The position numbers and the translations under genes are program-made. 64,000 nucleotides of DNA, from the IMG/VR virus record IMGVR_UViG_3300046169_000098. One strand, 5' to 3'. This stretch comes from an uncultured virus (IMG/VR IMGVR_UViG_3300046169_000098) (Duplodnaviria > Heunggongvirae > Uroviricota > Caudoviricetes). The notes beneath the pieces were generated by a model. That model had not been told where the DNA came from, ran no database searches, and saw nothing but the letters and a program-made list of their open reading frames with translations. Below, piece after piece: positions 30,001 to 53,252 of this stretch (the first letter of the stretch is position 1; each line of letters opens with the position of its first letter).

Positions 30001-33000
30001 TATCGATTACTTTATTATAAACACCTTTGTATCTTGTTTCTATAAAGTCATTTATGTTTATCTCGCTAACAGTTTCGTTGTTTACTAATATTGCCTTTCC
30101 TGGTGCATTTCCACCTGACAAGTAATATGAGTCATATCTTTCTAAAATAGCTTGACCAGGCAATAAATCTATGTTTTGCCTTAGATCTAATCTATTGAAA
30201 TCATCTTTATTTGAAAGCGTTAAGAAATCATTGACGTTTCCTTTTCCTAAAAGAACACACGATTGTAATAATTCATATCCAGAAATAGAACTAACTACAT
30301 AAACAGATGAACCTACATTATAAGAACTAAATTGAGTTTCGTTACTATCTATACATGCAGATAATGCAACAGCAATATCAGTGGTGGTACCTTGATTAGA
30401 ATATCTTTGGCCGTTAAATGTTCCAGCGTCTAATTGAGACTCTGCCATATAAACGTGGTTTCCAAGATCTAAGTTAGTTTGTATTTTGTCATTTCTAACA
30501 ATACAATTTCCTTGTGAAATAACTCTTAGATTTAAATCTCCTAAGTTTGCATTTTTTTCTGTTAAATAGAATGCATTATTATTGACATCTACTGTAACTT
30601 CAAAAATATCTTTAAACAAAGCAACGTCTTGTAAAAGACCTGGATCTACTGGATCCAAATCATATGTTAAAGAATTTTCAATAGTATTTTCAATAGTTTT
30701 AAGTGTGTTAATTACATCAGCTTCGACTTCTACACTAAATGTCTTTGGATTATCTGGATCCATTGGATCGTCAATTCCAAATTTTAATATTTCACCTTCA
30801 ACATGTTTAATAAATGTAAATTTACTTGCTTCCTCTTTAATTGCAGTAATCGCCAGTGAATCATTAGTGTATGGCGTATCAATTACATCTAATCTAATAA
30901 AGTCATAACCATGATCATTGTTTTCAACCAGATCAATAGACCTTTCAGTATCTTGAACGCCTAAGTATGTAGAGATTTGATTTCCACTATCTTCTATTGC
31001 AACCTTTAATTCTTTCTCGTTGTAATACGTATTGTTAGATATGTTAAAGTATTTATTACCAACAGTAGCATACGCCAACATAGGAGATGTTGTAACTTGT
31101 TTGTAAGAAGGAATAGCTGTTTCTGGAGAAGTCTCATCTACCAAAGAGGTTAGCTCTTTAAAATGGTGTATTTTACCATTTATTGTAAATACTCTACCGT
31201 AACCAGAATCTATATCGTCAACGAATAGACCAAAATATCTATTAACACTATAATCTTGTGCTAAGTCATCGTTAAATAAAAATTCTAAATTTATTAAGTT
31301 TGCTGAAGCTATTTCATTTCTTCTAAATGCATCGGTAATATAATCATTTGCCTCAATCAATGGCTTATCAGTCAGAATGTAATCTTTGTATAAATATTCA
31401 CCTTTTCTTGTAAAACCACCTTTGATTAAATCTATTCCATTGAAGCTAGATTTTTCAGATTTTTCAAAGTTAACTGTGATCGGTGCAATTGGGAAAGTTT
31501 CATCTTGTACATGATTTCTTAAATAATTACCGATATTAGAGTCTCTTGTTAAATCAAACGTTTTTATTATTTCAGCGTTGCTAAGTAAACTTTGAATTCT
31601 TTTAAAATTATCACTAGCATTATCTTTTAAATCTAAAGAACCTACTGGATCATTTACTCTGTATATTACAAATTTCTTTGGAATGTTTGTATCTAACCAA
31701 ATAGGTGCAAATATTCTAAAATCCTCATTGTGTAATTTAGAAAAATTGTAATTAGTTCCGTATTGATATGATTCTTCAATTTGTTTTTCGTAACTATCTA
31801 AAACAGTAATGTCGCTATAATCTCTTTTTGTTTGAAACATTAGCTCATTAGGTGTCATATTAACATTATAGAATCTTGCAACATCAAATGCATATTTACC
31901 TTCAGGGCTTATGGGAAACTTTTTATACTCTATAGCAGCAAGTTCCTTACTAGCACTTATACTTTCTAAATATAATTTATCATCTTCACTAACTACAAGT
32001 TTTACGTTTGTTGTTAGTTTAGGATTTGTTCTTAGTAACGGTCTAGAAACATTATCTAATTTGTAATTTGATTCTAAATCAAAATTTGGACCCAATGCAT
32101 TTATAACTGCATCATCTACTAGAGGAAAATTGTAAATGTAATCTGGAGTTGCTTCATTTCTACAACCCCTACAACCAGTACCATTGTCTTGATATATTTT
32201 AGCCTCTTGTTGACTAGCAAATCCTAGATCTATTGGATTTACAGAATTTATATTAATGTCAGGTCTATTATATCCAGAATCTTTTAATGAATCTAGTGCT
32301 TTTTCTATAGTCTCTGAGTATATTGTATGTATAAATTTAACACACGAGTATCCCTCAACACCAATAATTGGATTTGCTATATTTTCTTTTACATCTTCTA
32401 TAAAATCTTTTATATAACTTTCGCCTACATCTAATATTTGATCTTGATCTCTGTCAATGTCATATCCTGCATCTATTACATAGATTTTCCAATAATTAGA
32501 AGATGTTCCAAGTAAATTATCTTGTTGCTCGAATGCTTCACATGCATAAAAAGCATAATACACATTAGTATCGTTAATGCCTTGTGTGTTATCAATTACA
32601 ATAGGTAAATTTAGATAATCTAAATCTGGCTTTGTATATTGTGCACAATCGCCAGCTCTAGTAATTTGAGATCCTTTTACAAATTGGTTCTGAGAATTAA
32701 ATCCATACCAATCGTATTCAAATCCATCACCCTCATTATTCCAAACAAAATACTCTCCAGCGTCTGCAGAATAAACTCCACTAGGAGCTAAATCCTCTAT
32801 TAGATTATTATCAGCACCTTCTTGTGAAGAAAATATTTCAAGCTTTCTTTGGGCAATTTCTAATAAAGAAATACTATTTGCTGGCGCACCGTTAACATAA
32901 GGCAGTCTATAATAAATATCTACAACAGAAGAATCAGTGTTACATAATTTATCAGCTGTCTCAGAATACGAGACTGTATTTATAGAATATGTAGAATATT

Positions 33001-35461: not shown

Positions 35462-38400
35462 TTACCTTACAGAATACCCTTTAAAGTCAAACATTCTTCT
35501 ATCAACTGCTGGAGAAGTGAAACTAGGTACGTTTCTAACTAATTGTGCAGCTCTAATAGAATTTAAGTTTTTACCTTTTGCACTGTATTTAGCAAACACC
35601 TCTAAGTCAAATGTAAATTGATTTTCATACTTATCAAATATATCAAATCCTATCTTTTTAGTGTAAGTTAAGTTAGGGAAAGTTAATTTAGCCTGACCTC
35701 CAATTCTACCTCTGTCAGATTCTGCATCATTTCCAAAGTAATCTGTCATTCTATATTGGAATACGATGTCAACTGAAAGAGCATTAGAATTATCTAATCC
35801 TGATTTATCTCTACCCTTAATAGATCTTCTAGATTGCTTAGTTTCTCCATCAACTGAAAGAGTTGATAAATTAATTGGAGACATAAATAAGAATGATCCA
35901 CATGATCTACCTCCTAATAAGAATTGATCATTAGAATCAAACGACATTTTAAATGATCTGTTAAGAGGAATGATTTGCGAAGAATTATTTTCAGTATCTT
36001 GATATGCAAGTTGTTGCTTAGACTTGATATTGTTAACGTTAATAAAGCTAGCACCAAAAGATCCGACAGATCTAAATGATTTACCAGAAACAAAGGTTGC
36101 TGTTATTGGCATTGTGTGTGTTGCTTGATTAACTAATGCTTGTAAGCTTGTTTTTTGTTCAGCTTCTGAATATGCACCTTCAGTCCAGTTAGCATATAGA
36201 TTTTCTAAATCTGGGTGGTCCTTGTGCATATAAAGACCCGTGTTGTATGCTGCTGCACCTATACTACCAACAGAACAAACATCGACCATACTTTGGCTAA
36301 AGTCTGCAGTTAGGCTAGTCGCGTTATTGGCAACACCAAACGTTCCAGTCCAAATAAAATCATTAGTTTCTCCATCACCAGTTGGTGTAATTAAATCAAT
36401 ACTACCTGCGTCTGCCATAAAATTAGCATAACTTAGAGTGTACTCGTAGTTAGTTAAACTTGCAGATGCTCCGTCAATTAGAGACTCAGTAACATATAAT
36501 GGGTTTTGATTACCAATATCCATATATCTAGAGTAAATAAATTGACCTCTTCTTTGTGCCGATTGATAAGGAGCTTCTAATAATAAATCATAAGATCCAA
36601 TTTGTGTTGCAGAAATATTTTGATATTGGATCGGCGCTAAATCATATTTACCCTGAGTCGTGTAATATGTATCGTCTTGTACTTTAGTGTCAATACCAGT
36701 ACCACCTTGATCGTTTAATGCAGGACCAAATCCATTATTATGAATACTAGAACCACTAGAAGAAGATTTGTGAGCAGGCTCGTTTCTATCGCCAGTCAAT
36801 CTAGCTACTAATTCTAATTGTGTAGCCTTTTGTGTTTTCTAACTAGCAGTTTAAATGTCTTAGTAACAATGTGACCCTTTTTAATAGAAAGTTCAGCAAC
36901 CTCATCAACATAATAACCAGCAAATATTTGGTTTACTGTGTTGTTTTGCATAACAGAAACTGTACCATCCTCTGATCTTAGTGTTACTACTAATTCTCCA
37001 ACCTCAGCTTCGATACCTTCTTTAAGTGCAGCTATTTGAGCTTCTAGTGCAATTAGCTTTATCAAATACCGAAATAGGTTTTTGTTCATCTGATAAGAAA
37101 CCAGATGCAATTGAAGATGCATTATGTGCATAGAACTTTTTCGTTAGACACAAAGCTTTCGTCTACGTGTGTAAATACACCCTTAGAAGTTAACTCATCT
37201 GATATTTTAACAGATGCAACCTCAGCTAAGTTTTTCTCAACTAGTGCATCTAAATCAGTAGTGTCTATTTCAGCTTCTGGGAAATCAATAGTTATTGACT
37301 CTGACCAATCAGAATATATTGGGTTTGCAGGGTAACCTGCTTCAGAGATAGATCTTACTCTAATTTCTACTAATTCATTTTGGTTAATAGCAATATCAAG
37401 TTGGTTAAAATTGATTTCTTGTGCATCTTCTACTAAAGATTCTTTCCACTCAAACCTTCTTGCTAATTTTGGATTTCCAACATTTTCAACTTTACCTCTT
37501 GATCTAACCTTAGTTTTAATTTCATTCCAATTTGAGAATACCGCAGTTTTCTCTCTAGTACCATCTGTAAATGGCAATTGTGAAACTTCACTTGATTTAC
37601 CATTAGTTGATAAGTATCTATATTGTACAGCGAACTGAATAACCTTTTGATCAACAGTGTCTGCAACTTTCTTAGGAGCTGGCACTGCCCAAAATCCTCT
37701 AACTCTAAATTTAGGCGTAATGTTAGTTGCGTTAGTACTTGAAGCCAACGATTGAATTTGATTGACCAAACTATTGTAAAGTTTAGTTTCACTAGCTCTT
37801 TCGTCTATTAATGAGTTAAGCTCACTTTTATCTTTATCTCTCTGTACTTCAGATTCATATTTCTTAGTAGAAATTTCAGTTCTTTTCTTAGAAATAGTAT
37901 CATCTAGCTTCTTAATTGTTTCTTCAACAGTAGTTTTATCTGCAGAGAACTTCTTAATCTTATCAGATGCGTCATTCTTAGTCAGGTGTCTGTTAATTTG
38001 AACAACCTTAAAGTTACTGTTGTTCAGGATTGGCGCGTCTGGTGTTACTCCCACAGTTGCTGGTGGAATTGCGTCATCCTTAAGTGCCTTAATATATTGA
38101 CCAAAGTCGGCTACATTTTCTTTGTAATAATCATCTAATCTAATAAACGTGCCATCTTCTTGTAAAAGTGTTAATTCATTAGTATATAGACCCACACCAG
38201 GTGACCATTTTTCAGCCAACATATTAGATTCTGGGTCAATAGCTTTAATAAACACTAATATTCTTTCATTAAATCCGCAATTAACTTGAACAGATAATTC
38301 AGAATTTGTATATTTGTATATTGATAAAACGTCAGCACCTATTTTAAGAGCTTCGTATCCCTCTACTAATTCTAGTTCTAACTGTCTTGTAGAGCCATCT

Positions 38401-39242
38401 ATTTTTGTAACTTTATATCTAGTGTTTTTATTACCACTATTTAGCATTAATTCATCACCAGTTTTAAGCAGTTCAGTATCGTCTAAATCTTTCAAGTTAT
38501 CAGAATATGTTAACTTGTCTACTGTGATTAATTTTACAGATTTTTTCTTAGTTACACCACCTACGACAACTTCTTTCTTCATAGTGTCAATTGACGTAAT
38601 ATCGAATTTACCGCCATATTGACTATTTCTAAATGGTAAATCTCTGACTTCTTCGTCAAGAGTGTATGATAAGTTGTTGTTAACAATGTCTCTAATAACT
38701 GTAAAATAATCTAAACCTTCAGTATTCTTAAAGTTGCTTTTAAAGTACTCAACTGTAACATCACTTGTTGCATCAAAAATAATTCTTTTAATTAAAACTC
38801 TTTCTGTGTCATTAGGTATTTGTCCAGTTACATCTAACTTTGTAGTCAATAATGGGTTTAAAAAGTCTTCAAAGAAATAATTGCTTTTTGTAGAAAATCT
38901 TTCTGGTCTTACTAGACTATTAATATCATTTGCAGGTGTCTTTAAGGTAGATGTGAGAATATTTTGGTAACTTCCATCTGATAGTTTAATCTTAGTGTTT
39001 CCTTTGCCTAATCCCGAAAGTGCCTTTAAATTTGTATCTAACCTTTCTAACTCACGTTTCATATAACCAAACGCAGGGACATATACTGTCTTAGTAGTTC
39101 CTTCGGCTGTTAAAATTTCTAATGGAACATCTTTAGTTTCAGTAGTTATAGCCTCATTAATTCTTTCATATATCTTTAAAGAATTAGCATTGATTTCAAG
39201 AAGCTTCTTGAGCGTGTTAGAAAGTGAGTTGTTAGTATTCAT
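35462..39242 (-). CDS. large virion/baseplate structural protein, about 1260 aa, split by about four +1 insertions (36830-37140)
   Basis: ORFs 37122..39242, 36814..37131 and 35462..36799 join (…EKFYAHNASSIASGFLSDEQKPISVFDKLIALEAQ…ENTKATQLELVARLTGDR…). Confidence 0.6.
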
Positions 39243-41774: not shown

Positions 41775-44525
41775 TTATTTTACTTTTAGCATATTTCGTT
41801 TTACAACGTTTTTGTTACCATATGTGTCTTCTGCTTCAAGCTCTATTGAGTAGTACCCAGGTTGCTTGAATATGTACGTCAGCCACATATTATTATAGTA
41901 TATATCCGTTATTTCTGGATTACTTATATTCTTAATAGTCCACTTAGCATTCTTTGCTCCAGGGAACTTAGAAATATCTGTAGATATAGTCACGTGTGTA
42001 GATCTTTCAACCTCAGCATAATCCTTAAATACTTTAGTATCGTCAAATGTTGGGTTATAGTGTACACAGTGATTAAAGCCACTAACATTAGATGTGCTGT
42101 TTATATCTGATTTAATATTTACATCTGAAAAATCATAAGAATATGAATATTCTTCACCAGTTGCTATAATAAATCTAAAAATATCACTAACTAAAGGATC
42201 TACACCATCTACATCTTCCATTACTGGATTATAATTAAACTTATTTATAATTGGATCAGTGCTTTCATTTAATTCTTGAGCTATAGCGTTCCATGCGAAT
42301 AAATCTAGAGTACTTGTTGGTGTAGGTGATGTTATTACATGAGATCCTACTATGATTTCTTTAGTTTTAGGATCTACGTGTGTAATAGTTAATTCATCCC
42401 CTTGTTTTATGTCGTTTATTTTAAAACTTGAAGCCAAATCAGTACCTACTCTCATGGCATCCCACCACAAGTGTTTGCTATCTCTATATCTAAATGAACA
42501 TTCGTCCCATTGATATGGCCCTGCATTTTCACTAAAGCCTATTTCTGAATATACATCTACAAATCTTTGAACTGTTGAGAATCTAACCCCTTGATCATCT
42601 TCTCTGTGTACATAATTTGCTCTATCTAATGTTAAATAAAGAGTAGCGATGTCTTCGTCTATTGTTGTAGTATTGTCTTGTGGAAAATCCCAATAACCAC
42701 CTGATTTAGACCAATCTAGTTTTTTAGAATTCCAATCAGTTTGTTCTTTCCACTTGTATATGCCATATAGCTCTAAATCCTTTAACCTAATTTCAACTAA
42801 ATCATCAATTCTAAAATGTGATCTGTGTCCAAATAAATCATAAGTTCTCATTTCTACAGAATAATCACCGACAAATGGTAATGTCATAGGAAAAACTAAA
42901 AAATCATCAATTGGTCCTCTAAAAGATTGATCATAACCTTTTTCTTTATTAGTTATAATCCATTCAACTTCATATACCCATCTTTTCCACCAATTATCCC
43001 AAGTAACTTTTAGGTTTTCGTTAGCATCTACTGCATCGTCCCAAACAAATTCAGCTTCATCCCAAATATCATCGAAAGTACCTGTACCGTCTAGTGTTAT
43101 TGGAGCACCGATTGGAATATTTTGGTTATAAGAGTGTAATTCAGTATCGTAATAAGTTTCATAGAATTCATCATAAATGTTCTTTAACTCCGTTCTTTGT
43201 GAAGGTGTTAAATCTCCTTCTGTGCCATACTCAAGGTTTAAAAATAAATTATAATTAGAAGAATCGTCGTTTTGATCTAATGATGTTTTTAAAACCATAG
43301 ATGTATCTTCTATAAAAATAGGTCTATTTTTTGGATAGACATCAAATTTTATATTATGACCTTCTGTAAAAAATCCTACACCGTTTTGTATATTCCATAC
43401 ATTTAAATTCTTCTGTGCAAAATAATCACCTTCACCAGTAATGTCTATTATTTTGGCATTTAGTGGTAAAAAGTCTTTTTGTAACCTATTCTTTAATCCG
43501 TATAATTTAATTAATACTTCTTCAGGTGTAAAATCAAATACCTCTTCTACATTTGGAATATCCCATTGATCAAAGGTGCCATTTGTTTCGTTGATTCTAT
43601 AAACCAAACTAAATCTGCTGGTTTTCTTCATCGTACTACTTGGCACACTAAACTTTAATCTTTTGCGGATCATCTCGCCTCTTTTAGAAGCGTTTGGTAC
43701 CGGCACAGCGTACATTTTACCGAAGCTTTCTGTTGACTTATCAACATTAAGCCAATATTCCTTTAGTGTGATTCTATCATAGCCAAAGAAATCTATAGCA
43801 TTTAATATAGCTTTATAAGTTCCTACAAATGGCTTAATGTTATGTAATTCTAAGAGTAACTCTTTTCGCTTACTATTAAGAAGTTTAAAATCTGGAGACA
43901 TTTCACTAATGTCATGTGTCTTAAACAACATAAAGTCACCAATGTCTAGCGTTGCACCGAAGTTTGACAATAAAGTACTAAGTCTTTCGTCTTCTTCAAC
44001 AACCTCACCGTATATTACTATCTCAGCAATTAATAATTCTGCGTTGTTAATAGATTGATAAACACAAAGAGTTCTTCTGTGTGGCCCTGCTGTGTTTGAA
44101 CTAAGTGCAACGTTTACTTGCATTGCAACTTGATTTGGAGTTGAAATTTCTTTTACAAAATTATAGTCTATATTATCTATATAGGAATATGGCTCTAAGT
44201 CAAATTCTAAAGATTGCTTTTCATCAACGATAATTTTACCATCTTCTAGCTTAGTGCCATACATGATTATATCTTTAGATGTAACAATAGTATCTTTTTT
44301 CCACTTAAAAACAAATTTAACATCTGCATCTAATTCGGCAACTGGAGTGTTAGCAACTAAATCACCTAAATGTTTACACTCTTCTAATATAAAAAGATTG
44401 ACAGTTTCATATAACTGTACAGAAACTTCATCTAAAAATAGATTACCTTTCCAAACACCAGCTGCATCTTGAATTAAATTCAAGTCATTATCTAAGCCAT
44501 TAAAAAATCTTAAATTACTATACAT
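41775..44525 (-). CDS. baseplate wedge-like structural protein (gp7-like position) with C-terminal PKD-like domain
   Basis: GTYKAILNAIDFFGY motif typical of P2 gpI/gp7-type wedge proteins; C-terminal YIFKQPGYYSIEL...D.YGN. Confidence 0.55.
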   Translation of the reverse strand: MYSNLRFFNGLDNDLNLIQDAAGVWKGNLFLDEVSVQLYETVNLFILEECKHLGDLVANTPVAELDADVKFVFKWKKDTIVTSKDIIMYGTKLEDGKIIVDEKQSLEFDLEPYSYIDNIDYNFVKEISTPNQVAMQVNVALSSNTAGPHRRTLCVYQSINNAELLIAEIVIYGEVVEEDERLSTLLSNFGATLDIGDFMLFKTHDISEMSPDFKLLNSKRKELLLELHNIKPFVGTYKAILNAIDFFGYDRITLKEYWLNVDKSTESFGKMYAVPVPNASKRGEMIRKRLKFSVPSSTMKKTSRFSLVYRINETNGTFDQWDIPNVEEVFDFTPEEVLIKLYGLKNRLQKDFLPLNAKIIDITGEGDYFAQKNLNVWNIQNGVGFFTEGHNIKFDVYPKNRPIFIEDTSMVLKTSLDQNDDSSNYNLFLNLEYGTEGDLTPSQRTELKNIYDEFYETYYDTELHSYNQNIPIGAPITLDGTGTFDDIWDEAEFVWDDAVDANENLKVTWDNWWKRWVYEVEWIITNKEKGYDQSFRGPIDDFLVFPMTLPFVGDYSVEMRTYDLFGHRSHFRIDDLVEIRLKDLELYGIYKWKEQTDWNSKKLDWSKSGGYWDFPQDNTTTIDEDIATLYLTLDRANYVHREDDQGVRFSTVQRFVDVYSEIGFSENAGPYQWDECSFRYRDSKHLWWDAMRVGTDLASSFKINDIKQGDELTITHVDPKTKEIIVGSHVITSPTPTSTLDLFAWNAIAQELNESTDPIINKFNYNPVMEDVDGVDPLVSDIFRFIIATGEEYSYSYDFSDVNIKSDINSTSNVSGFNHCVHYNPTFDDTKVFKDYAEVERSTHVTISTDISKFPGAKNAKWTIKNISNPEITDIYYNNMWLTYIFKQPGYYSIELEAEDTYGNKNVVKRNMLKVK

Positions 44526-44807: not shown

Positions 44808-46637
44808 TTATTTTAATGCCTTTCTATTACCAGCTTGTAATCTAGTATAAATAGTTCTAGGCACAGGATCACCTTCGAAGTTAATACTTAGTGCAGCTTC
44901 AGCGTTAATTAAAACGTCATCAACTATTTCATCACCATCTCTATCTTGCCATCCGCCTCTGAATACCGCAACCTCTTCTTTCTCCATAATTATATCTCCC
45001 CATCTATCTAATCCTACGACTTCTTCTGGAATTACAGTATTTTCATCTACTTCAACAGTGTTAACTTCTTCAATTCTTTTAAAGAAAACATATTTTTGTT
45101 TTCCATTTCCAACATTTTCTAAAGTAACTGGCTCTTGTGGAACCACTTGAACGGTTTTAGACTCAAAATAACCAAGTCTTCTGGCAGTTTCTTCAGTTTC
45201 AGAAATAAATCTAACGTTAACTGCATCAATACCCTCAATTTCTTCTAGTATGTAAACTATATCAGATTTAGGTAACTTATCTCTTCTTGTAACGTTTAAT
45301 AAATACTCATCGATTTTACTTCTGATTGCATTAGATATTTCATCTTTAGTAAATCCTTCAAAAAATCTAACATTTACATCCATGCTATATTTTCTAATCT
45401 TAGGTTTTACAAACACGACTTCTGTTGTAACCATCTGCTGACCACTGTCCTGTAAAACCTTTCTCATTTTTTCATATTCTTGATCATCGAAAAACATTTC
45501 TTCCTGTGGAACAGAAAAATAATCTTGATTTTTAGCTAGTTTCTTTCTAACATCTGGAATAGCAAAAATATAAATTACATTATCGTCATCTAAATATTGA
45601 TCTTCGGTTGTATTATAAGCATCCAAATATGAGAATATGCCATATCTTGATAAGAAATATTCGTAATTATCTGGTGTTGCTAACACAAAAGACTTACTAG
45701 CAAGTGGAGTCATTATTTTAGTAAACTGAGTAGACTCTCTGTCTGTTCCCATTTTAGGCGATGATGTAACAGTAATATCCAAGAAATTATTTAGATCGTG
45801 TTGTTCTCCAACAGAATCTTCACCTTGAGCCATCCATTTTAAAGTCAAGTCATTAGAATCATCTATATTACCTTTTTTACCATCATGAACAACATACTCT
45901 ACTTCTATCTTAGATCCAACCGGAGGCCTCATGCCAAATGCAGTGTTTCCAAAATAAACGTCTAGTCCACCAGAAATTCCAGTCTTTACTAAGTACGCTT
46001 TTTCGTCTCTATGTAAATCATATAAAGATTCTTGTTTAGTCCAAACCTCTCCGTTAACACTAACAGTTATTTTGCTATGATCTGAAAGTCCGGCGGTTTG
46101 TACGTTAAAAGATTGCAATGGTTCACCATCGCCTGTAAATGATTGTGTTTGAAATTTACCTTGAATAATAGCAGTACTAATTTTAGTGCTATTGCTTTTT
46201 TCTAATCTAAATCTGTCCTTATCGGTTAATAGTGTATATGTTAAACCGTTAAGATCGAATTTTAATTCCGCTCTACTATCGATAGTTATTCCGGAACCAG
46301 ATATTTTATCAAAATCTACACCTGGTTTCCATCTAAATTCTATTTCTCCAGTAGCGGCAAATCCTCTAGTAGCATCATGCCCTGTCAATCTACTCATACC
46401 ATAAATAGATTCAACGTGTTGTGCAGTGTATATGTTCTGTTCTACTATGGCATCCTCAAGATAGAATAATATCAGTTCTTGAATTTCAGACATAACCGAA
46501 AGTATCTGTGCAAATGGAGATGCTTCTGTAAATAAAGTACCTGCACGACCATAGATTCTAGAAATATAAACTCTAGCATCGTCTTTAATTTGCGTCGCAG
46601 TTGTTCTTAATGTACTTAAAAATTTTAATTCAGCCAT
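44808..46637 (-). CDS. baseplate wedge protein (T4 gp6 / baseplate J-like)
   Basis: NIYTAQ..SIY....L.G, VYFGN..FG..P..GS.I.VEY...DG..GN, G...ES and V...DNYE motifs. Confidence 0.85.
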   Translation of the reverse strand: MAELKFLSTLRTTATQIKDDARVYISRIYGRAGTLFTEASPFAQILSVMSEIQELILFYLEDAIVEQNIYTAQHVESIYGMSRLTGHDATRGFAATGEIEFRWKPGVDFDKISGSGITIDSRAELKFDLNGLTYTLLTDKDRFRLEKSNSTKISTAIIQGKFQTQSFTGDGEPLQSFNVQTAGLSDHSKITVSVNGEVWTKQESLYDLHRDEKAYLVKTGISGGLDVYFGNTAFGMRPPVGSKIEVEYVVHDGKKGNIDDSNDLTLKWMAQGEDSVGEQHDLNNFLDITVTSSPKMGTDRESTQFTKIMTPLASKSFVLATPDNYEYFLSRYGIFSYLDAYNTTEDQYLDDDNVIYIFAIPDVRKKLAKNQDYFSVPQEEMFFDDQEYEKMRKVLQDSGQQMVTTEVVFVKPKIRKYSMDVNVRFFEGFTKDEISNAIRSKIDEYLLNVTRRDKLPKSDIVYILEEIEGIDAVNVRFISETEETARRLGYFESKTVQVVPQEPVTLENVGNGKQKYVFFKRIEEVNTVEVDENTVIPEEVVGLDRWGDIIMEKEEVAVFRGGWQDRDGDEIVDDVLINAEAALSINFEGDPVPRTIYTRLQAGNRKALK

Positions 46638-46639
46638 TG

Positions 46640-46996
46640 TTATCTAATATTTAATTGTACAAGATATTTACTATCTATTGTTATATCAATATATGCAATA
46701 TCTCTAACGTTACCTTTAAAGAATTGTACTTTAGTAGCAACATTATATTTTTGAGCTAAAGGACAGTAATATTTTATTTGTGTATCTAATACGTCCTTTA
46801 ATTGGCCTTCGTTATATCCTAATGAATATATGTAATTTTCTAAATCACAGCCAAACCCTGGTGACCCTAACACATCGGCCTTTCCAGTAAATAAAATAGT
46901 TTCAACTTGTTGTACTAGTTGTTCTATCTCACCATTGGTTTGAACCTGTGTGCGATTATAATTTGGGTCTCCTAAAGTCTTTATATAAAAATCCAT
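46640..46996 (-). CDS. baseplate protein (T4 gp25-like)
   Basis: ILFTGK.DVLG.P.FGCDLENY.Y; directly upstream of gp6-like. Confidence 0.8.
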   Translation of the reverse strand: MDFYIKTLGDPNYNRTQVQTNGEIEQLVQQVETILFTGKADVLGSPGFGCDLENYIYSLGYNEGQLKDVLDTQIKYYCPLAQKYNVATKVQFFKGNVRDIAYIDITIDSKYLVQLNIR

Positions 46997-47017
46997 TTAT
47001 ATATGTATCTCAATTTT

Positions 47018-47875
47018 TTAACTATGGAACATGAAGTCTACACCTTCATCTCCTTTGATTTCTTCTTCTATTGCTTCTAATTCACTATCACCCATATCCT
47101 TAATTGCGCTATAATCAAATTCAACGTTACCAGGTAATGCAAATTTAAAGATACCTAATTTAGCACCCAGCGACTGTTTAATTTTAGCACTAACATATCT
47201 AAAAAATATTTCATCGTCAAATAGGGCACAGTCTGGGATAGTCTCAAACAATTCCAGTATAACGTCTCCCTTAGGTGTATCACCCATGATCTTTAATTCA
47301 CCAGTGTTTCTTTGGTATTGATATGAAATTGGATTTTCTAGAATCTGCCTAGACATATCGGCTAAAGATGCATTTAGTACATAATATTGTAATTCTTCTG
47401 CAGCTTCAGCTGGACCAGAACCGTTGTACATATTTCTAAATAACATTCTTTCTAATGCAAAATCAGCACCTGGTTGGAATCTAAGGTCCATACCCGATCC
47501 AACTGAGTTCCATCCAGAACTTAAATCATATACACCGTATACTGAAAAGACTCCACCTCCACCAGCTCCTGGTGTACCAGAAGGGGCAGGAGCAGGCAAA
47601 TTAAGCGCTCTGTTTTCTTTAAAGTATTCTGAGTTAAATACTTCGAATGGAATGTGATAATAGTTTTCTCTTACAGAATCCTCATATTTCTTATACATCC
47701 ATTTTTTAGCCCTGTTAATTATGTTAATAACTTCTTTTTGCGGTAAGTTTACAGGCAACATACATGCACCTGTAATTTCATCTGCAATTTCTGTTAAAAA
47801 ATCGTTTAGACAATTATTACCAAAATCTCTAGGTGTTGTTAAATCATTATTGCTTCCGCTTTTAATTAAACTCAT
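47018..47875 (-). CDS. neck/head-tail adaptor protein (T4 gp13-like)
   Basis: LP..V.SV, Y.Y.R.T.EL.I.G, F.RYV.AK.K..LG..L..F...LPG.V.F....I...G. Confidence 0.7.
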   Translation of the reverse strand: MSLIKSGSNNDLTTPRDFGNNCLNDFLTEIADEITGACMLPVNLPQKEVINIINRAKKWMYKKYEDSVRENYYHIPFEVFNSEYFKENRALNLPAPAPSGTPGAGGGGVFSVYGVYDLSSGWNSVGSGMDLRFQPGADFALERMLFRNMYNGSGPAEAAEELQYYVLNASLADMSRQILENPISYQYQRNTGELKIMGDTPKGDVILELFETIPDCALFDDEIFFRYVSAKIKQSLGAKLGIFKFALPGNVEFDYSAIKDMGDSELEAIEEEIKGDEGVDFMFHS

Positions 47876-47878
47876 CTT

Positions 47879-49189
47879 TTATTTTATTTTTTTACTAACT
47901 ACCACCTCAGTAGTATCGCCAACTCTAGCGTCTTTTCCTAAAAAGCCTTCTCTGTATATACCACCGATTAGCCTTCCTTTAAATACACCGTCTCTTCCGA
48001 ACACAAAACAATTTGTCGCGGTAGAACTACCGTGCACATAACATGACTCGATTTTACTATCTTTTACTTCAGTGCTTTGATAAAGATTACACCTTGTAAG
48101 CATTGATCCCTCAATATTACAACTGTAAAATTCAGAATTCTCAATATTACCTCTTAATTCACAATCAATAAACTCGTAGCCATCTAAAATGTATATGGTT
48201 TTAAATACACCGTCCTTTATTTGAATTGTTCCATAATCAGAATCGTAATTTATAAGTCCTTTTTCCATAGATCCGTTAGAAATTAAATCTATTACCTTAT
48301 CTTTTATTTTAGGCCATTGAACTTTAATCATTTGTTCGTTATCTTGTAAATCTACTAGCACGTGAATTTTTGGAAAATATTCGTTTAGTTTCTTATAATC
48401 TTTTAGAGACTCAATAAGTGGTTTATTTTTATTTAGAATTTTTTTTAATTCAACTCTATTTTGTAAAGAAAATCTACTATCATTACATGATTTCCACATC
48501 TGCATAATAAACCTTTCACATAGATATAGAATTTGATCCTTTTGTTTTTGGTAATCTTTACCGCCAATATATCTAAATTCTAAATAATTCTTTTGGGCCT
48601 TTTCAAAGTTAATGCCATAATATTTGGAATTAGCAAATTTAAAATTCATTGGGGAAATGTGATCGTCATCATACCAGTATGCATCTCTAGCTGGCATCAC
48701 CCACTTTATACTTTTTGCATACGTAGAACCTTCTCGAGAAGGGAAGAAATTATAAACCTGTGCCTCATCAAACTCTAAAATAAATTTAAGTACATTCATT
48801 TTAGATACCATCAAAGCATCTTCTAAATACTCCTCTTTAAATGACATGTTTAAGTGAATACTTGCTCTGTCATTTGTGTAACCGTTTTGATCAATCCAAT
48901 CCAACATCTTAACGATAATAATTCTAGCATTTCTGTATGGAATAGGTCCAGTAACTAATTCTATTAGTCCTTTTCCACCTGACATATCAGGTTCCATTTT
49001 AAATACTTTATCGTCCGGTACGAAATCAGAATGTGCCTTATCTTCTAATTGAATCTTTCTATTTAGAAGTTTAGACAAGGCATCTTGAGTCTCTTTAAGA
49101 CTATGGTTAGAATAGAACTCGAACTCTACACCTATTTGTGCAGAGTTCAAGATCTGTTCCTTTGTAGATTTTAAATTAAGTTTTTGCAT
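47879..49189 (-). CDS. putative amidoligase (COOH-NH2 ligase) domain protein with C-terminal beta-helix-like repeats
   Basis: IGVEFEF, EPD.SG, IELVT, SIHLNMS, KYYGIN and LEFR motifs; C-terminus rich in I.NS.F..C pentapeptide-like units. Confidence 0.7.
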   Translation of the reverse strand: MQKLNLKSTKEQILNSAQIGVEFEFYSNHSLKETQDALSKLLNRKIQLEDKAHSDFVPDDKVFKMEPDMSGGKGLIELVTGPIPYRNARIIIVKMLDWIDQNGYTNDRASIHLNMSFKEEYLEDALMVSKMNVLKFILEFDEAQVYNFFPSREGSTYAKSIKWVMPARDAYWYDDDHISPMNFKFANSKYYGINFEKAQKNYLEFRYIGGKDYQKQKDQILYLCERFIMQMWKSCNDSRFSLQNRVELKKILNKNKPLIESLKDYKKLNEYFPKIHVLVDLQDNEQMIKVQWPKIKDKVIDLISNGSMEKGLINYDSDYGTIQIKDGVFKTIYILDGYEFIDCELRGNIENSEFYSCNIEGSMLTRCNLYQSTEVKDSKIESCYVHGSSTATNCFVFGRDGVFKGRLIGGIYREGFLGKDARVGDTTEVVVSKKIK

Positions 49190-49237
49190 CTAGAGTATGA
49201 TATTACCGTTTGATTATATATCACACTCTCGTTGAAC

Positions 49238-50533
49238 TTATTGTGGTAGTTTAAGAAATACTTTCATAGAGTCTACATCTATTCTTGTAATTTGAACCGT
49301 GATCTCATCTCCAGGTTTAAATACAGACATAGTTTCTTCCCCTATTTCACTGATATGTAACAATCCTGTAACACCATCTTCGATGGTTATAAATAGCCCA
49401 TAATCTTTTTTAGTTTTAACTTTAGCAGTTACATTAGATGGAATTTGGTATCTTGTAGTAATATCTGCCCAAGGATTTACCTCTACGTTAGCTTTTTGTG
49501 TCAATGTAATCTTCTTTTCACTTACAATGTCTTTAACTTTAAATGCGATCTCATCACCTGGTTTAATTTCTCTCTTTTTAAATTTAACCAATGTTTCTTC
49601 ATCTAAATCATTGTTATGAATCATACCAGTTAGGCACTTATTAAACTCAACAAATACACCGTACTTAGCAGTACCTGTTACATGACCTATTTTCTCGCTA
49701 TCTATAGTTTCTTTTAATTCTTCTATTGCTGTAGGGATCATAGCTTGTAAATACTTTCTATGCGAAACGACTAATGTACCTCTGTCTGGTGAGAAACTAA
49801 CAGGAACCACATACATTTCTGTTCCAATGATAGAACTAAAGTCATGTAATTTATTGATTCCAGCTAATGATCCAGGCATAAAGCAATCTATTCCTTGAAC
49901 GTTAACTATGTAACCTCCGTTTTCTATCATATTTACAACTGTACCTACCCAAGCAGTGTCACCTTTTTCAACACCGTCTCTTAGATCCATAAATGTTTTT
50001 TGCTTAACACCACCACTGATGCTTCCAATAACATGTGATCCTGGTCTATATGTTGTGATCAATACTGAAGTAGCTTCTCCAGGTTTAAGGGATTGAACAT
50101 GTTCAGGCTCTTTTTCAAACTTAATATAAACAGATTCTCTATAACCCACATCGACCGTGATAAAGTCTGAAGTCACAGCATATACTGTACCTTCATAAAT
50201 TGCACCTTCTTGTAATTCAGGTAACATGTTAACGTTAGACTCGTATTGCTCCATTTTGTCATATAGCTCTTGAGCATAGACTTCTCTAGAGTACACTTTG
50301 TCTCCGTTTCTAGTTTTAATATGTGGATTTGGTTTTCTAAGTCTTGTTACACATGAAGCTTCATAGTCATCCCATTGAAATTCTCCTGCCTCATTGTACC
50401 ACTGTTCGTTTCCGTCGGTTTCTTCGACTTTAGCCTTTTCGTCAACTACTGTTTCGGTTTCTGATTGTACCTTCTTTGCATCTAGAACGACCGTAGTTTC
50501 GCCGATTCTAGCCCTTTTTGTTTTGTTTGTCAT
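49238..50533 (-). CDS. rpsA: ribosomal protein S1 (bS1)-like protein with four S1/OB domains
   Basis: YEGTVYAV....ITVDVGY, GGYIVNVQGIDCFMPGSL...VVSHR, G.VTGTAKYGVFVEF....GMIH..DL, DYGLFITIEDGVTGLLHISEI. Confidence 0.88.
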   Translation of the reverse strand: MTNKTKRARIGETTVVLDAKKVQSETETVVDEKAKVEETDGNEQWYNEAGEFQWDDYEASCVTRLRKPNPHIKTRNGDKVYSREVYAQELYDKMEQYESNVNMLPELQEGAIYEGTVYAVTSDFITVDVGYRESVYIKFEKEPEHVQSLKPGEATSVLITTYRPGSHVIGSISGGVKQKTFMDLRDGVEKGDTAWVGTVVNMIENGGYIVNVQGIDCFMPGSLAGINKLHDFSSIIGTEMYVVPVSFSPDRGTLVVSHRKYLQAMIPTAIEELKETIDSEKIGHVTGTAKYGVFVEFNKCLTGMIHNNDLDEETLVKFKKREIKPGDEIAFKVKDIVSEKKITLTQKANVEVNPWADITTRYQIPSNVTAKVKTKKDYGLFITIEDGVTGLLHISEIGEETMSVFKPGDEITVQITRIDVDSMKVFLKLPQ

Positions 50534-50579
50534 TTATTTTTATATTAAGAGTGTAACATATTATATATCCTTCTATTTT

Positions 50580-52533
50580 TTAGAACACGACAGGTACAAA
50601 ACCTACCATAGGCACTGGGCCAGCAGGTGTTGGAATACCTCCAAGATATAATAATTTAAATTCTAATAAGTGCATTGCATATGTCGCTGCCAAAGCAGTT
50701 GCGACAACTGTTGCAGGTGGTTTAGTTGGTGGAATCATAAATGATTTACCAGAATTCCAAGCTCTTCTTAGGTTATTAGCTAATCTAGTTTTTCCACCAT
50801 AATAAATCGGTACATAAATACCAGTCAGTGGCGCTGTAATTAATGCCGGAGGCATTGGCGTACTTGGGGCAAATGGTTTTACAATACACAAATACCAGTA
50901 AGTTATGGTGACAGCTGCCATTTCTTCATATGGGTCACCACCTGGCCATGTAAAGTTTATATCTGCACCTTCTTCTTGCTCATCACACTGCATCTGCTTC
51001 TTCTTTTGATTTTTCAGCTTGAAAATATTGAAATTTAAAAACAGTTCCACCATTTTTTGGATCTATTTCTAAAAACTGATCTAAAACTGCCTTAGCGTCA
51101 GTAGGCATTCGGACTTATGTTAGATACTGCGTTTGGTATTTTTGCCCAATGTCTTTCATATTCATAATTCAACATATTCATTTTTCACATATTGATTATT
51201 TTTGTCCCACCATAGAATTTTATTACTATCGTTTAATACAATGTTGGGTGCCTCACCTTCTTCTAGATTTAAATTACCTAAATTACCTGTACTAGAATAT
51301 TGATTTACAGATTTTATTGTACTACTATCATATGAAAAGAATGCTATTACACTATCAGTCAGTATCCTAGGTCTTTTGCTTTCATGTTGTGGTAAATCAC
51401 GTTCTCTATTAAAAGAGACCTGACACTTATATTCGTCTAGTGGACAAAGCACATCTTCACTTAGGTCTGGTGATGGCATTGGAGTTTCTGCCTTTCTACC
51501 AAGTGATAGCCTTTTAAATAAATCATTTTCAGTATAAACGTATTCGCTTCTATTACCGCTTGCAGCCACCGTAACCTCATATGCTGGAAACGCAACATCT
51601 ATTGCTTCTTTAAATACTCTAGAAACACCATCTACTATTTGTTTCCAATTATCATAGCCTGCATTTTTTATATCGTTTCTTACTTGAGTTTCTACGTTTA
51701 CATACGGGAATCTTTGCTTCCATTGGCTACTAGCATAGTAGTAATTATTTGCGACAAAGTCTTCGTAATTTGCCTTACCTAAACTCGTGGCCCATCTAAT
51801 ATAATTAAATTGGCCGTTTAAACTACCTATTTTATCAAATTGCTGTAAAAGTCTATTTGCGAATAAATCAATAATATCACTTGCAGATTCTTTGCCATCT
51901 AAGCAATGAAATTGAAAAAACCTAAATTTATATAAGTCATATTTAGGATTATCTTTATTTTCATTTATAAACTTAGAAAATTTCTTATCTATTTTCTTTT
52001 GTTCTTCTATTGGATCTGGTGGTACAATTGGTTCAGGACAAAGGTCAGCATAATCTGGATGTGATTCTTTTCCCATTTCTGTGATATTACCATCTTCATC
52101 CTTTTGATCCATTAGTGGAATATCACCTTCTTTTAATAATCTTTCAAATACTAAGACCATATCCATTCTTTAGAAATTCTTCAGCCGCACCGTTGTTGGT
52201 ATGCGTTGCTCCAACTGGTGTCATTGCAGCACCTTTTACTGCATCTAAATAGTCCTGCGCTATTGCAACACCAAAGTCATATCTGCCACTTAAGGGATTT
52301 GTATTGCCTATATTAGTAAACTGAGAAGGATTAGTGGCTAAGTTTGCGTTTAGTGGATTTCCTGGCTTTACTGCATTTGCAAGTGCAGGTGTTGGTGGAA
52401 AAATATTTACTTGATCTGCTCCAACTTTAGGTGTCTCATATGATTGCGTTGCTAGCCCACCAGGTTTTGTAAACTGATGGCTTGAGATCGTATTGGCAGC
52501 AGCGCTTATAAATGATGGCCAGATTACGGGCAT
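50580..52533 (-). CDS. probable baseplate-associated structural protein fragmented by several indels
   Basis: ORFs 52144..52533, 51162..52166 and 50580..51053 are consecutive; the first junction is restored by removing one base (NGYG-LVFERLL). Confidence 0.5.
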
Positions 52534-52535
52534 AA

Positions 52536-53252
52536 TTACTTATTCTTTTGTTGATAGTTAATATGAGTACTTGATAATTTTGCTACTGTCGCCGGTGTTG
52601 GTGGCATTGGAGGTCCAGATGGCCCAACTCCAGTTGGGTGTATATGTGCATTATAGTCATCCAATAATGCTTGTAACCAATCTTGTAAAGATTGACCTCT
52701 CACTGCAGGTTCAGTTTCGTCTGCTCCACCTTCACCGGTATTAGAAACGAAAATATCACCACAATCTAAAAACACTTTATCATCTGTTGAAATTTTAATA
52801 AAACCATCTTCATCAATCTGAATCATAGGTCTTTCTTTGGCACCACTACCGCGTGTAATGATTAGCCCATCTTCAGGAGAATGATATATCCTTAAGTTTC
52901 TTTCCGCATCGTATACTAAACTGATTACATCATGTGGCGCGTCCGATGATTCTAAAACATCACCCTTAAGATCATCATTTTGGTCTATTTGAAACCAATA
53001 TTCTGGGTGGTAAATATTTCCATTGTCAAATCTAACTGCAACTATATCGCCAACTCGAGGAACCGAATGAGCGCCGACTTGATCTCTATTCATAGGTGTT
53101 GCCCATGGAATAGCGTCTTCTGTTAATGTGTCAAATTTACCATAAACCTTTACCCTACATCTTCCTTGTAATAATGGATCCTCGTTGACAACTACCTCAC
53201 CAAGCCAGTGAGTTTCTCTAATGTTGTCTTTGTAAAGCTCTTTATCATTCAT
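52536..53252 (-). CDS. baseplate spike protein (gp5/gpV-like OB fold)
   Basis: DPL.QGRCRVKV.G, IPWA.P, VP.VGD.V.V.F.NG; C-terminal H.H iron-binding-type motif HIHPTGVGPSGPP. Confidence 0.88.
   Translation of the reverse strand: MNDKELYKDNIRETHWLGEVVVNEDPLLQGRCRVKVYGKFDTLTEDAIPWATPMNRDQVGAHSVPRVGDIVAVRFDNGNIYHPEYWFQIDQNDDLKGDVLESSDAPHDVISLVYDAERNLRIYHSPEDGLIITRGSGAKERPMIQIDEDGFIKISTDDKVFLDCGDIFVSNTGEGGADETEPAVRGQSLQDWLQALLDDYNAHIHPTGVGPSGPPMPPTPATVAKLSSTHINYQQKNK

Follow-up and report, generated by a model that had tools for sequence, protein, structure and literature searches.

A gene for a homologue of bacterial ribosomal protein bS1 lies within the baseplate module of an uncultured tailed phage (IMG/VR record IMGVR_UViG_3300046169_000098), in a stretch of 64,000 nucleotides (nt) that is termed the window and to which position numbers refer unless stated otherwise. 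The gene encodes a phage version of bS1, in which a Bacteroidia-type anchor segment and domains 1 to 4 (D1-D4) are present, domains 5 and 6 are missing and a disordered N-terminus and a basic insert have been added (Table 1). Every sizeable open reading frame (ORF) of the window is on the minus strand. A near-identical virus record of 212,342 bases (G001), with a CheckV estimate of 76% completeness, matches the window at 99.25% identity over 64,013 nt; L numbers denote individual loci or rows of the comparisons. The S1 gene is encoded on a bona fide phage genome and is not cellular contamination, as is clear from its baseplate flanks, from the T4-like virion genes of G001 (portal, prohead protease, major capsid, terminase, sheath and tail tube) and from synteny in 80/80 related viral contigs, whose S1 proteins are 61-99% identical.

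Table 1. Features of the S1 locus, with positions in the window
Feature	Position	Strand	Description
Phage bS1-like gene	49238..50533	minus	ATG start, 431 amino acids (aa), stop codon 49238-49240
Residues 1-46	50396..50533	minus	Basic start (KR.RIGE), then acidic, variable, disordered linker; without bacterial counterpart
Residues 47-105, Bacteroidia-type bS1 anchor	50219..50395	minus	F-x-W helix GEFQWDDYE, basic insert, pre-D1 helix YAQELYDKMEQY
Domain 1, residues 106-190	49964..50218	minus	Divergent oligonucleotide/oligosaccharide-binding (OB) fold, D1 type
Domain 2, residues 191-275	49709..49963	minus	Divergent OB fold, D2 type, invariant CFMPGSLAG stretch
Domain 3, residues 276-356	49466..49708	minus	Canonical S1 RNA-binding domain
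Domain 4, residues 357-431	49241..49465	minus	Canonical S1 RNA-binding domain; C-terminus at D4/D5 border of bS1
Leader	50534..50559	minus	Short, A/U-rich, without Shine-Dalgarno (SD) sequence (TATGTTACAC...AAAAATAA)
Promoter-like motif GATATATAAT	50560..50569	minus	10-mer, 26 nt before ATG
Baseplate J/gp6-like gene	44808..46637	minus	phrog_219 E 4e-28, Pfam Baseplate_J E 6e-5; downstream of S1
gp25-like gene	46640..46996	minus	phrog_43 E 9e-4, weak; downstream of S1
285-aa gene			Downstream of S1; weak head-tail adaptor match
Next gene, 436 aa	47879..49189	minus	Amidoligase-like N-terminal half, pentapeptide-like repeats; own GATATATAAT at 49213-49222
Baseplate spike/hub protein	52536..53252	minus	gpV-type OB domain; Pfam Phage_base_V E 1.5e-7, phrog_37871 E 2e-12; upstream of S1

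Domain layout, anchor and predicted docking

The S1 domain was matched by Pfam over three stretches of the protein (E 1e-23). Scored domain by domain against a cut-off of 22 bits, D3 and D4 reached 36 and 43.8 bits, D1 18.9 bits and D2 gave no match, which fits an arrangement of two divergent domains of the ribosome-binding type followed by two canonical domains of the RNA-binding type. In a search of solved structures E. coli bS1 residues 17-346 (D1-D4) were collinear with phage residues 106-429 (E 2e-41), and an AlphaFold2 model built on 22 relatives folded into four OB beta-barrels at residues ~112-171, 195-257, 281-345 and 366-428 (predicted local distance difference test, pLDDT, ~85-90), with helical segments at 54-65 and 87-101 and a disordered stretch at residues 1-40 (pLDDT <50). 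The top fold matches of this model were ribosome-bound bS1 chains, led by 9gut_B (E 6e-29). The four folds, the collinearity with bS1 and the per-domain scores bear out the original prediction, made from the sequence without database searches, of four S1 domains, two resembling D1/D2 and two resembling RNA-binding domains. The CFMPGSLAG stretch of D2 was found in 79/79 loci.

Eleven NCBIfam bS1 equivalog models matched the phage protein with E-values from 2e-49 to 2e-28, all far under their cut-offs; the best, NF004952, aligned residues 93-429 to model positions 32-373 of 580 with 168.2 bits against a cut-off of 524, while TIGR00717 gave 159.9 bits against 577. The full set of domains in Bacteroidia is six, and the phage protein stops at the D4/D5 border of the Bacteroidia profile. 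The truncated S1 that had been proposed for this locus is thus recognizable as a D1-D4 derivative of bS1 carried on a phage, and it has retained those sequence features by which host bS1 is anchored to the 30S subunit. The ORFs scanned with Pfam, in the window and in G001 outside it, included no second one with an S1 domain, and a PHROGs search returned no family, structural or other, for the S1 protein. A PDB entry titled 'Ribosomal protein S1 homologue' (436 aa) was considered as a phage structure and excluded, being from a Chlamydomonas chlororibosome. The family is large, with 1813 proteins at E <= 1e-5, many of them from ocean surveys, and the best 120 are all of phage-type length.

Some 105 residues precede D1. 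The original prediction took this region for a phage-specific extension of about 110 aa, and its length stands while its specificity does not, as residues 47-105 align with the Bacteroidia anchor. Profile-profile alignment (hhalign) of 22 phage-type proteins with 27 Bacteroidia bS1 proteins gave one alignment (probability 100, E 1e-45, ~26% identity) running from window residue 47 through the F-x-W motif, with the insert gapped, up to the D4/D5 border, so that a bacterial counterpart is lacking only for residues 1-46 and for an insert of some 15-20 aa. In the window protein GEFQWDDYE occupies residues 50-58 and is followed by the basic insert (~61-80) and then by YSREVYAQELYDKMEQY. For comparison, bS1 proteins were taken from 30 genomes of the same class as a Flavobacteriaceae metagenome-assembled genome (MAG) that holds a contig of a relative, and from a phylum-wide sample; in most of the class-level proteins [DEN]-F-[DN]-W lies ~30 residues ahead of D1. 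Counted as F[DNQSE]W within 95 residues before D1, the motif is present in 24/31 class-Bacteroidia rows and in 12/35 phage-type proteins, as against 0/26 other Bacteroidota rows and 0/65 unnamed bacterial bS1 representatives, with the reservation that the pattern misses close relatives carrying F-M-W or F-L-W. The class group of 31 comprises the 30 sampled rows and L106, which the tree places inside that clade. On this alignment the phage S1 keeps an N-terminal segment of the kind that would anchor it at uS2 and uS8.

The function of the corresponding segment in bacteria was recently revealed by cryo-electron microscopy (cryo-EM) of the F. johnsoniae ribosome (2026), in which bS1 residues 4-40 form a helix-loop-helix on the 30S subunit (PMC13000457). 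That study finds the segment stably bound to uS2 and uS8, with the aromatic helix FLANFNWHNF (residues 11-20) contacting uS8, and reports that the anchor density vanishes without bS21 (PMC13000457). In an earlier 70S structure, bS1 density is absent (PMC7797042). A complex was predicted from window residues 41-200 with their alignment, a Bacteroidia uS2 alignment and the Swiss-Prot F. johnsoniae uS8, giving a score of 0.62 against 0.39 for the best of three controls and the verdict 'supports binding', a mark reached by 116/157 solved complexes and 2/215 mismatched pairs. The runs shared at least 74% of contacts, with partner pLDDT of at least 70. The most confident predicted pairs join uS2 32-36 to S1 78-82 and uS2 33, 34 and 43-45 to S1 helix 86-91, S1 residues 78-94 falling within the predicted uS2 interface, and the interface also lists ten uS8 residues and S1 residues 42-61. 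Modelling with uS2, which had been suggested as a check on the original prediction, yielded a predicted uS2/uS8 complex that outscores its controls; the pass may partly be memory, because bS1-uS2 complexes have already been solved, and what the prediction shows is likeness to bS1 docking and not binding itself.

Strong purifying selection acts on the gene. Between the window S1 and five relatives of 86-97% identity the ratio of nonsynonymous to synonymous substitution rates (dN/dS) was 0.05-0.10 for the whole protein, 0.05-0.15 for the anchor (residues 47-105), 0.035-0.105 for D1-D2 and 0.036-0.062 for D3-D4, the last being under the strongest constraint, and residues 1-46 were relaxed (0.17-0.42). 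Within the anchor F52, V80 and A87 are invariant among close relatives, and in the basic start K6, R7 and R9 do not vary across 8 close relatives. A capsid-targeting or cleavage signal at the N-terminal RIGE was considered and dropped, as the Glu is not kept in P0121-P0123.

Promoter-like motif, gene neighbourhood and phage genome

The 8-mer GATATATA, the reverse complement of 50562-50569, is part of the promoter-like motif ahead of S1 and lies 28 nt before the ATG. It occurs 10 times in the window, always on the coding strand, and is found no more than 60 nt upstream of S1 in 79/79 loci, in 78/79 as GATATATA[AT]TATG. In the window the exact 10-mer GATATATAAT has 6 copies on the coding strand and none on the other, the Markov expectation being 0.42; with one mismatch allowed, 20 sites against 18 expected are not above chance. 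Across G001 there are 17 copies of GATATATAAT on the coding strand and none on the opposite one, and the shorter GATATATAA, with the consensus GATATATAA(T/A), is found 27 times against 1. Most of these 27 sites are intergenic (25) and stand no more than 100 nt before an ORF start (24, where ~12% would be expected). The genes that follow include those for portal (22 nt from motif to start), major capsid (92 nt), tail tube (20 nt), S1 (27 nt) and the S1 neighbour (24 nt), as well as collagen-like fibre genes and the gene of a 2764-aa Ig-domain protein; several sites precede genes without a named product.

T4-type late promoters consist of a short A/T-rich -10-like element and have no -35 box. 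The motif resembles them as a short A/T-rich sequence that is found, solely on the coding strand, 20-90 nt ahead of genes for portal, capsid, tail tube and fibre-like proteins, and no -35-like element is visible; it differs from them in its sequence, GATATATAA(T/A), in that the phage has a sigma-70-family factor, and in that some sites precede non-structural genes. A late, T4-style promoter ahead of S1 can reasonably be inferred from this pattern. The motif that the original prediction placed 28 nt upstream of the gene is confirmed in that position, is above chance and is common to portal, capsid and tail-tube genes.

The 26-nt leader between motif and start codon is nearly unchanged in relatives down to 64% S1 protein identity, and other motif-led genes have unrelated leaders. 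It is conceivable that the leader is a self-regulatory binding site for the S1 protein. A right-anchored measure of column conservation was blurred by length differences of 1-3 nt and was set aside.

Leaders throughout G001 are poor in SD sequences. In ORFs of at least 80 aa a GGAG/GAGG/AGGA core was found at -20 to -4 in 9/219, against 10.4% for random 17-mers, and A is enriched at -11 to -13 (0.57-0.59) and at -3, -5 and -6 (0.51-0.54) over a genome-wide frequency of 0.37. An A at -3, -6, -12 and -13 is stimulatory in F. johnsoniae host mRNAs (PMC13000457). The phage mRNAs therefore look like host mRNAs, SD-poor with A-rich leaders, which would fit a Bacteroidia host.

The genes following S1 are the same, and in the same order, in 80/80 loci, the 436-aa gene included, and the spike module precedes S1 wherever the contig extends far enough. 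Three small genes lie between S1 and the upstream spike gene and were undetected in 4/80 loci (L031, L032, L040 and L079). The structural genes expected on both sides of S1 are thus present as the J/gp6-like gene and a weak gp25-like gene downstream and the gpV-type spike upstream. The C-terminal half of the 436-aa protein has a weak Pentapeptide_4 match, and in its nearest Atlas viral clusters 14-29% of members have PF12224 (Amidoligase_2), which is a lead only; in a more distant cluster the figure is 90%, with Pentapeptide also carried.

Further along the same strand of the window (35462-39242) three consecutive ORFs of 706, 105 and 445 aa match successive parts (6-687, 707-784 and 935-1075) of one 1092-position PHROG profile, which suggests either a single large gene interrupted by frameshifts or a gene that is truly in segments. 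At 27083-35377, also on the minus strand, the 2764-aa protein with bacterial Ig and cadherin-like domains is encoded behind a GATATATAAT site, and after it comes a 659-aa protein whose match to a collagen repeat is weak (E 1.3e-4, below the Pfam cut-off); both are probably fibre or decoration proteins.

The original prediction had called for a search of the genome for bS21 and other translation factors, and G001 encodes bS21, 12 tRNAs and a CCA-adding-type enzyme. The bS21 protein (62 aa, over the Pfam cut-off) is encoded on the same strand as S1, ~27 kilobases (kb) away and past the window's right end; among solved structures it is closest to F. johnsoniae bS21 (E 1e-10), a Tyr being aligned to Tyr54, and bS21 was also found in 2/5 other long contigs of the clade (33-53% complete). 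The run of genes around it (G001 45703-49600) consists, all on the same strand, of two ORFs, DnaJ, a 93-aa ORF, bS21, an 86-aa ORF, PhoH and a GNAT acetyltransferase, and lies ~2 kb downstream of two tandem GATATATAAT sites, just upstream of which is an Hsp20 gene. Two ATP-grasp ligase genes, one of them R2K-like, are found at G001 41838-43798, and the motif stands 3 nt ahead of the start of one of the two.

G001 also carries genes for gp32, UvsW, RecA-like, DnaB-like and DNA polymerase B proteins and for a sigma-70-family factor, ClpB-like, ClpP, DnaJ and Hsp20 proteins. The sigma-70-family factor, ten tRNA genes and the CCA-adding-type nucleotidyltransferase lie together at G001 182225-186575, and two more tRNAs are 15 kb further on (G001 201272-201859). 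At G001 127339-134259 DNA polymerase B is in two ORFs ~4.6 kb apart with ribonucleotide reductase (RNR) genes between them, the RNR large subunit being in three ORFs; real gene splitting, inteins or introns, or assembly indel errors could each account for this.

A Bacteroidota host is indicated because of a 599-aa protein encoded on the opposite strand (G001 188619-190415, minus) and bearing at its end a CHU_C type IX secretion signal domain, which marks Bacteroidota, a weak BACON match, the relative's contig binned in the Flavobacteriaceae MAG and the translation signals. A genome scan with a narrow family alignment gave 7 loci, one of them informative (L090).

Possible roles of the phage S1

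The explanation that we regard as best, and as somewhat more probable than improbable, is that the phage bS1 docks on the host ribosome and is expressed together with the virion genes. S1 would be transcribed with the virion genes from the phage promoter GATATATAA(T/A), and its product would dock on the host 30S subunit at the uS2/uS8 site of host bS1, a step to which the complex prediction lends support. D3-D4 would then hold A-rich, SD-less leaders, and phage S1 together with phage bS21 would keep initiation running, or raise it, during the mass production of virion proteins. A supply of phage S1 would be of value given that the binding of host bS1 is weak and that host bS1 may run short or be a target. 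Phage S1 may replace host bS1, as the original prediction has it, or may add to it.

The predicted docking on the ribosome and probable late expression both have support in the features described above; selective translation of phage messages is unsupported. The original prediction had S1 biasing ribosomes to phage mRNAs, for which no support was found, as host mRNAs are also SD-less and A-rich and no leader feature sets the phage apart from its host, so that no sequence basis for selectivity of phage over host is visible. Several other observations weigh, as this one does, against the preferred explanation. The phage S1 is far below all curated bS1 cut-offs (168 against 524 bits), and a hidden Markov model of Bacteroidia N-termini alone scored the window N-terminus at 7.2 bits, where 1000 shuffles reach 10.9, although two more distant phage-type proteins reached 16.5 and 15.1 bits. 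In the G001 copy of S1 (75388-76685, the counterpart of window 49238-50533) the frame is broken by two 1-nt homopolymer insertions ~190 nt apart, and divergence is higher in a 120-nt patch between codons ~120 and 160 than elsewhere in the gene; these irregularities are probably assembly errors or a strain mosaic, and the frame is intact in the other 80 loci. Further motif sites lie 116 nt ahead of an RNR small-subunit gene and 28 nt ahead of a 56-aa ORF (G001 107857-108027) in a 403-nt gap upstream of the gp32-like gene, and because of these sites the word 'late' draws on the majority of the downstream genes and not on every one. A PHROGs scan of 69 ORFs found no late sigma of the T4 gp55 type, G001 being ~76% complete. 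Pieces of the S1 gene are contained in four RNA-labelled runs of four studies, with 50632-51975 uncovered in all four; these runs are assembled contigs, from which strand, start and level cannot be read and in which DNA carry-over is possible.

The phylogeny weighs on the same side. The 35 phage-type S1 proteins form one clade in a D1-D4 tree (SH-aLRT 100) on a very long branch, and a quick free tree puts this clade outside Bacteroidota, beside long-branch singletons. Constrained trees do better than the free tree, joining the phage clade with all Bacteroidota rows by 93 log-likelihood units (p-AU 0.956) and with the class rows by 47 (p-AU 0.801), and therefore the free search was not at its optimum. 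The D1-D4 domains name no donor and the trees do not settle the placement of the phage clade; the shared anchor motif appears a better clue to a Bacteroidia source than the domain tree, and its homology speaks for descent of the phage S1 from bS1.

Other roles for the protein can be weighed against the same features. It is fairly unlikely that S1 is an RNA-binding factor acting off the ribosome, using D3-D4 and perhaps the basic N-terminus to chaperone phage mRNAs, shield them or pass them on, or serving as a cofactor of a phage enzyme, with the bS1 site of the 30S subunit left unused. Host S1 is a described subunit of Q-beta replicase, and the T4 RegB nuclease is stimulated by S1; in the phage protein D3 and D4 are canonical S1 domains and the bS1 equivalog cut-offs are far from reached, all of which would suit such a factor. 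The anchor is nevertheless the more telling conserved feature, with its low dN/dS, its invariant F52, V80 and A87 and a uS2/uS8 prediction that passes, and D1-D2 miss the RNA-binding profile yet are strongly constrained. It is very improbable indeed that S1 is a structural part of the baseplate or tail, built on re-used OB folds and uninvolved in translation; the gene does stand between baseplate genes, and baseplate hubs often contain OB folds, as the neighbouring spike does, but the collinear homology to bS1 D1-D4 (E 2e-41; hhalign E 1e-45), the retention of a class-specific ribosome-anchor motif and the lack of any PHROGs structural family match all argue the other way, as does the finding that the distant relatives in Lak and other huge phages are 120-170 kb from their baseplate J genes.

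The fixed place inside the baseplate module in 80/80 loci and the motif shared with virion genes could also point to a takeover protein that is made late, packed near or with the baseplate or tail, injected with the DNA and active on ribosomes at the start of infection, for which the disordered N-terminus with its conserved basic start could be a packaging signal. The same idea has been raised for phage bS21 (PMC9723584). Such delivery is considered quite improbable for S1, in that no conserved protease-type cleavage motif was found in the N-terminus across the wider family, gene position alone is weak evidence, and bS21 is elsewhere, in a chaperone/PhoH cluster. There is likewise only a small chance that the shortened S1 is a competitive blocker, filling the bS1 site, initiating poorly without D5-6 and so shutting off host translation, as might be read from the retention of the anchor and D1-D2, the loss of D5-D6 and the predicted uS2 interface. 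Apparent late-gene expression would bring in such a blocker when the phage needs maximal translation, and because phage and host leaders are alike it would harm the phage as well; D3-D4, which are the most constrained part (dN/dS ~0.04-0.06), would be superfluous in a simple plug, and E. coli S1 remains active in translation without its C-terminal domains.

Docking on the host ribosome with expression alongside the virion genes can be extended to the proposal, which is unlikely, that matched phage bS21 and S1 rebuild the mRNA-exit platform of the Bacteroidia 30S subunit, bS21 stabilizing the anchor in the manner of host bS21 with host bS1 and the basic insert and N-terminus altering which leaders are captured; in a bolder variant S1 carried in the virion would act from the first minute. 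If true, the phage would specify a late initiation module beyond the reach of host defences aimed at bS1 or bS21. The protein on which the Flavobacterium bS1 anchor depends is bS21, and the phage S1 travels with its own bS21. With a class-specific anchor helix, an end exactly after D4 and a phage bS21 alongside, a vague notion of ribosome hijacking becomes precisely testable, and a purified F. johnsoniae translation system exists (PMC13000457). The S1 family being large, with many members from the ocean, any effect on translation would bear on how abundant marine Bacteroidota are killed.

Relation to bacterial bS1 and to other phages

Reports of S1-like genes in big phages go back to marine virome work, and attention was drawn to them in 2020. 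As an ambiguous case S1 was left out of account by Mizuno et al. (2019; PMC6375957), and Al-Shayeb et al. (2020) listed S1 among huge-phage genes while finding 'true' rpS1 hard to confirm (PMC7162821); the status of phage S1 was left open because S1 domains are everywhere. For huge phages the general idea is already published (PMC7162821). Literature searches on phage-encoded S1, supplements excluded, found no study of such a protein. Newly described here for such an S1 are the anchor plus D1-D4 layout, the class-specific anchor motif and the predicted uS2/uS8 interface, together with purifying selection, the fixed place in the baseplate module, the genome-wide motif common with virion genes and the pairing with a phage bS21.

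In comparison with class-Bacteroidia bS1 (F. johnsoniae, 591 aa, PDB 9zcd chain A), the phage protein has the F-x-W helix, the pre-D1 helix and D1-D4 in the same order, D1/D2 being divergent and D3/D4 canonical in both, and its predicted uS2/uS8 contact matches that seen by cryo-EM (PMC13000457). It differs in its length (431 aa against ~580-720 aa), in ending at the D4/D5 border, in the 46-aa disordered N-terminus and the basic insert between the two anchor helices, and in being the product of a baseplate-module gene.

Megablast of 15 kb against the phage collection gave no match. By both S1 and baseplate J the nearest published phages are the huge phages LR756500-504/LR745206 and the Prevotella Lak phages, with Tenacibaculum phages next nearest for baseplate J only. 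Identities of S1 by tblastn were 35.8% for LR756500, 35.1% for LR756504, 31.8% for LR745206, 28.8% for LR756501/3 and 28.6-28.9% for 15 Lak records. The Lak-B5 homologue is alike in its GSFDW motif, basic insert and YAQDLY helix and has only three domains, while the LR756500 and LR756501 proteins are without a clear F-x-W. The distance from S1 to baseplate J, which here is spanned by one baseplate module, is ~12.5 kb in LR756500 and 120-170 kb in Lak and the other LR records. Unlike the huge-phage group with 'possible rpS1', the phages described here form a marine clade with genomes of >212 kb as against >460 kb, and like that group they have an SD-poor genome (PMC7162821).

A further close parallel in the literature is with phage bS21, which Chen et al. 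(2022) found to be co-expressed late with structural genes in Bacteroidetes phages and for which both substitution on the host ribosome and packaging in the virion have been proposed (PMC9723584). The phage S1 is a different protein from the bS21 of that study (~60 aa), and the bS21 of the present phage adjoins DnaJ, PhoH and GNAT genes outside the virion module, unlike the one in PMC9723584. Like that bS21, the phage S1 is a homologue of a small-subunit initiation protein and is encoded among the virion genes of a presumed Bacteroidota phage.

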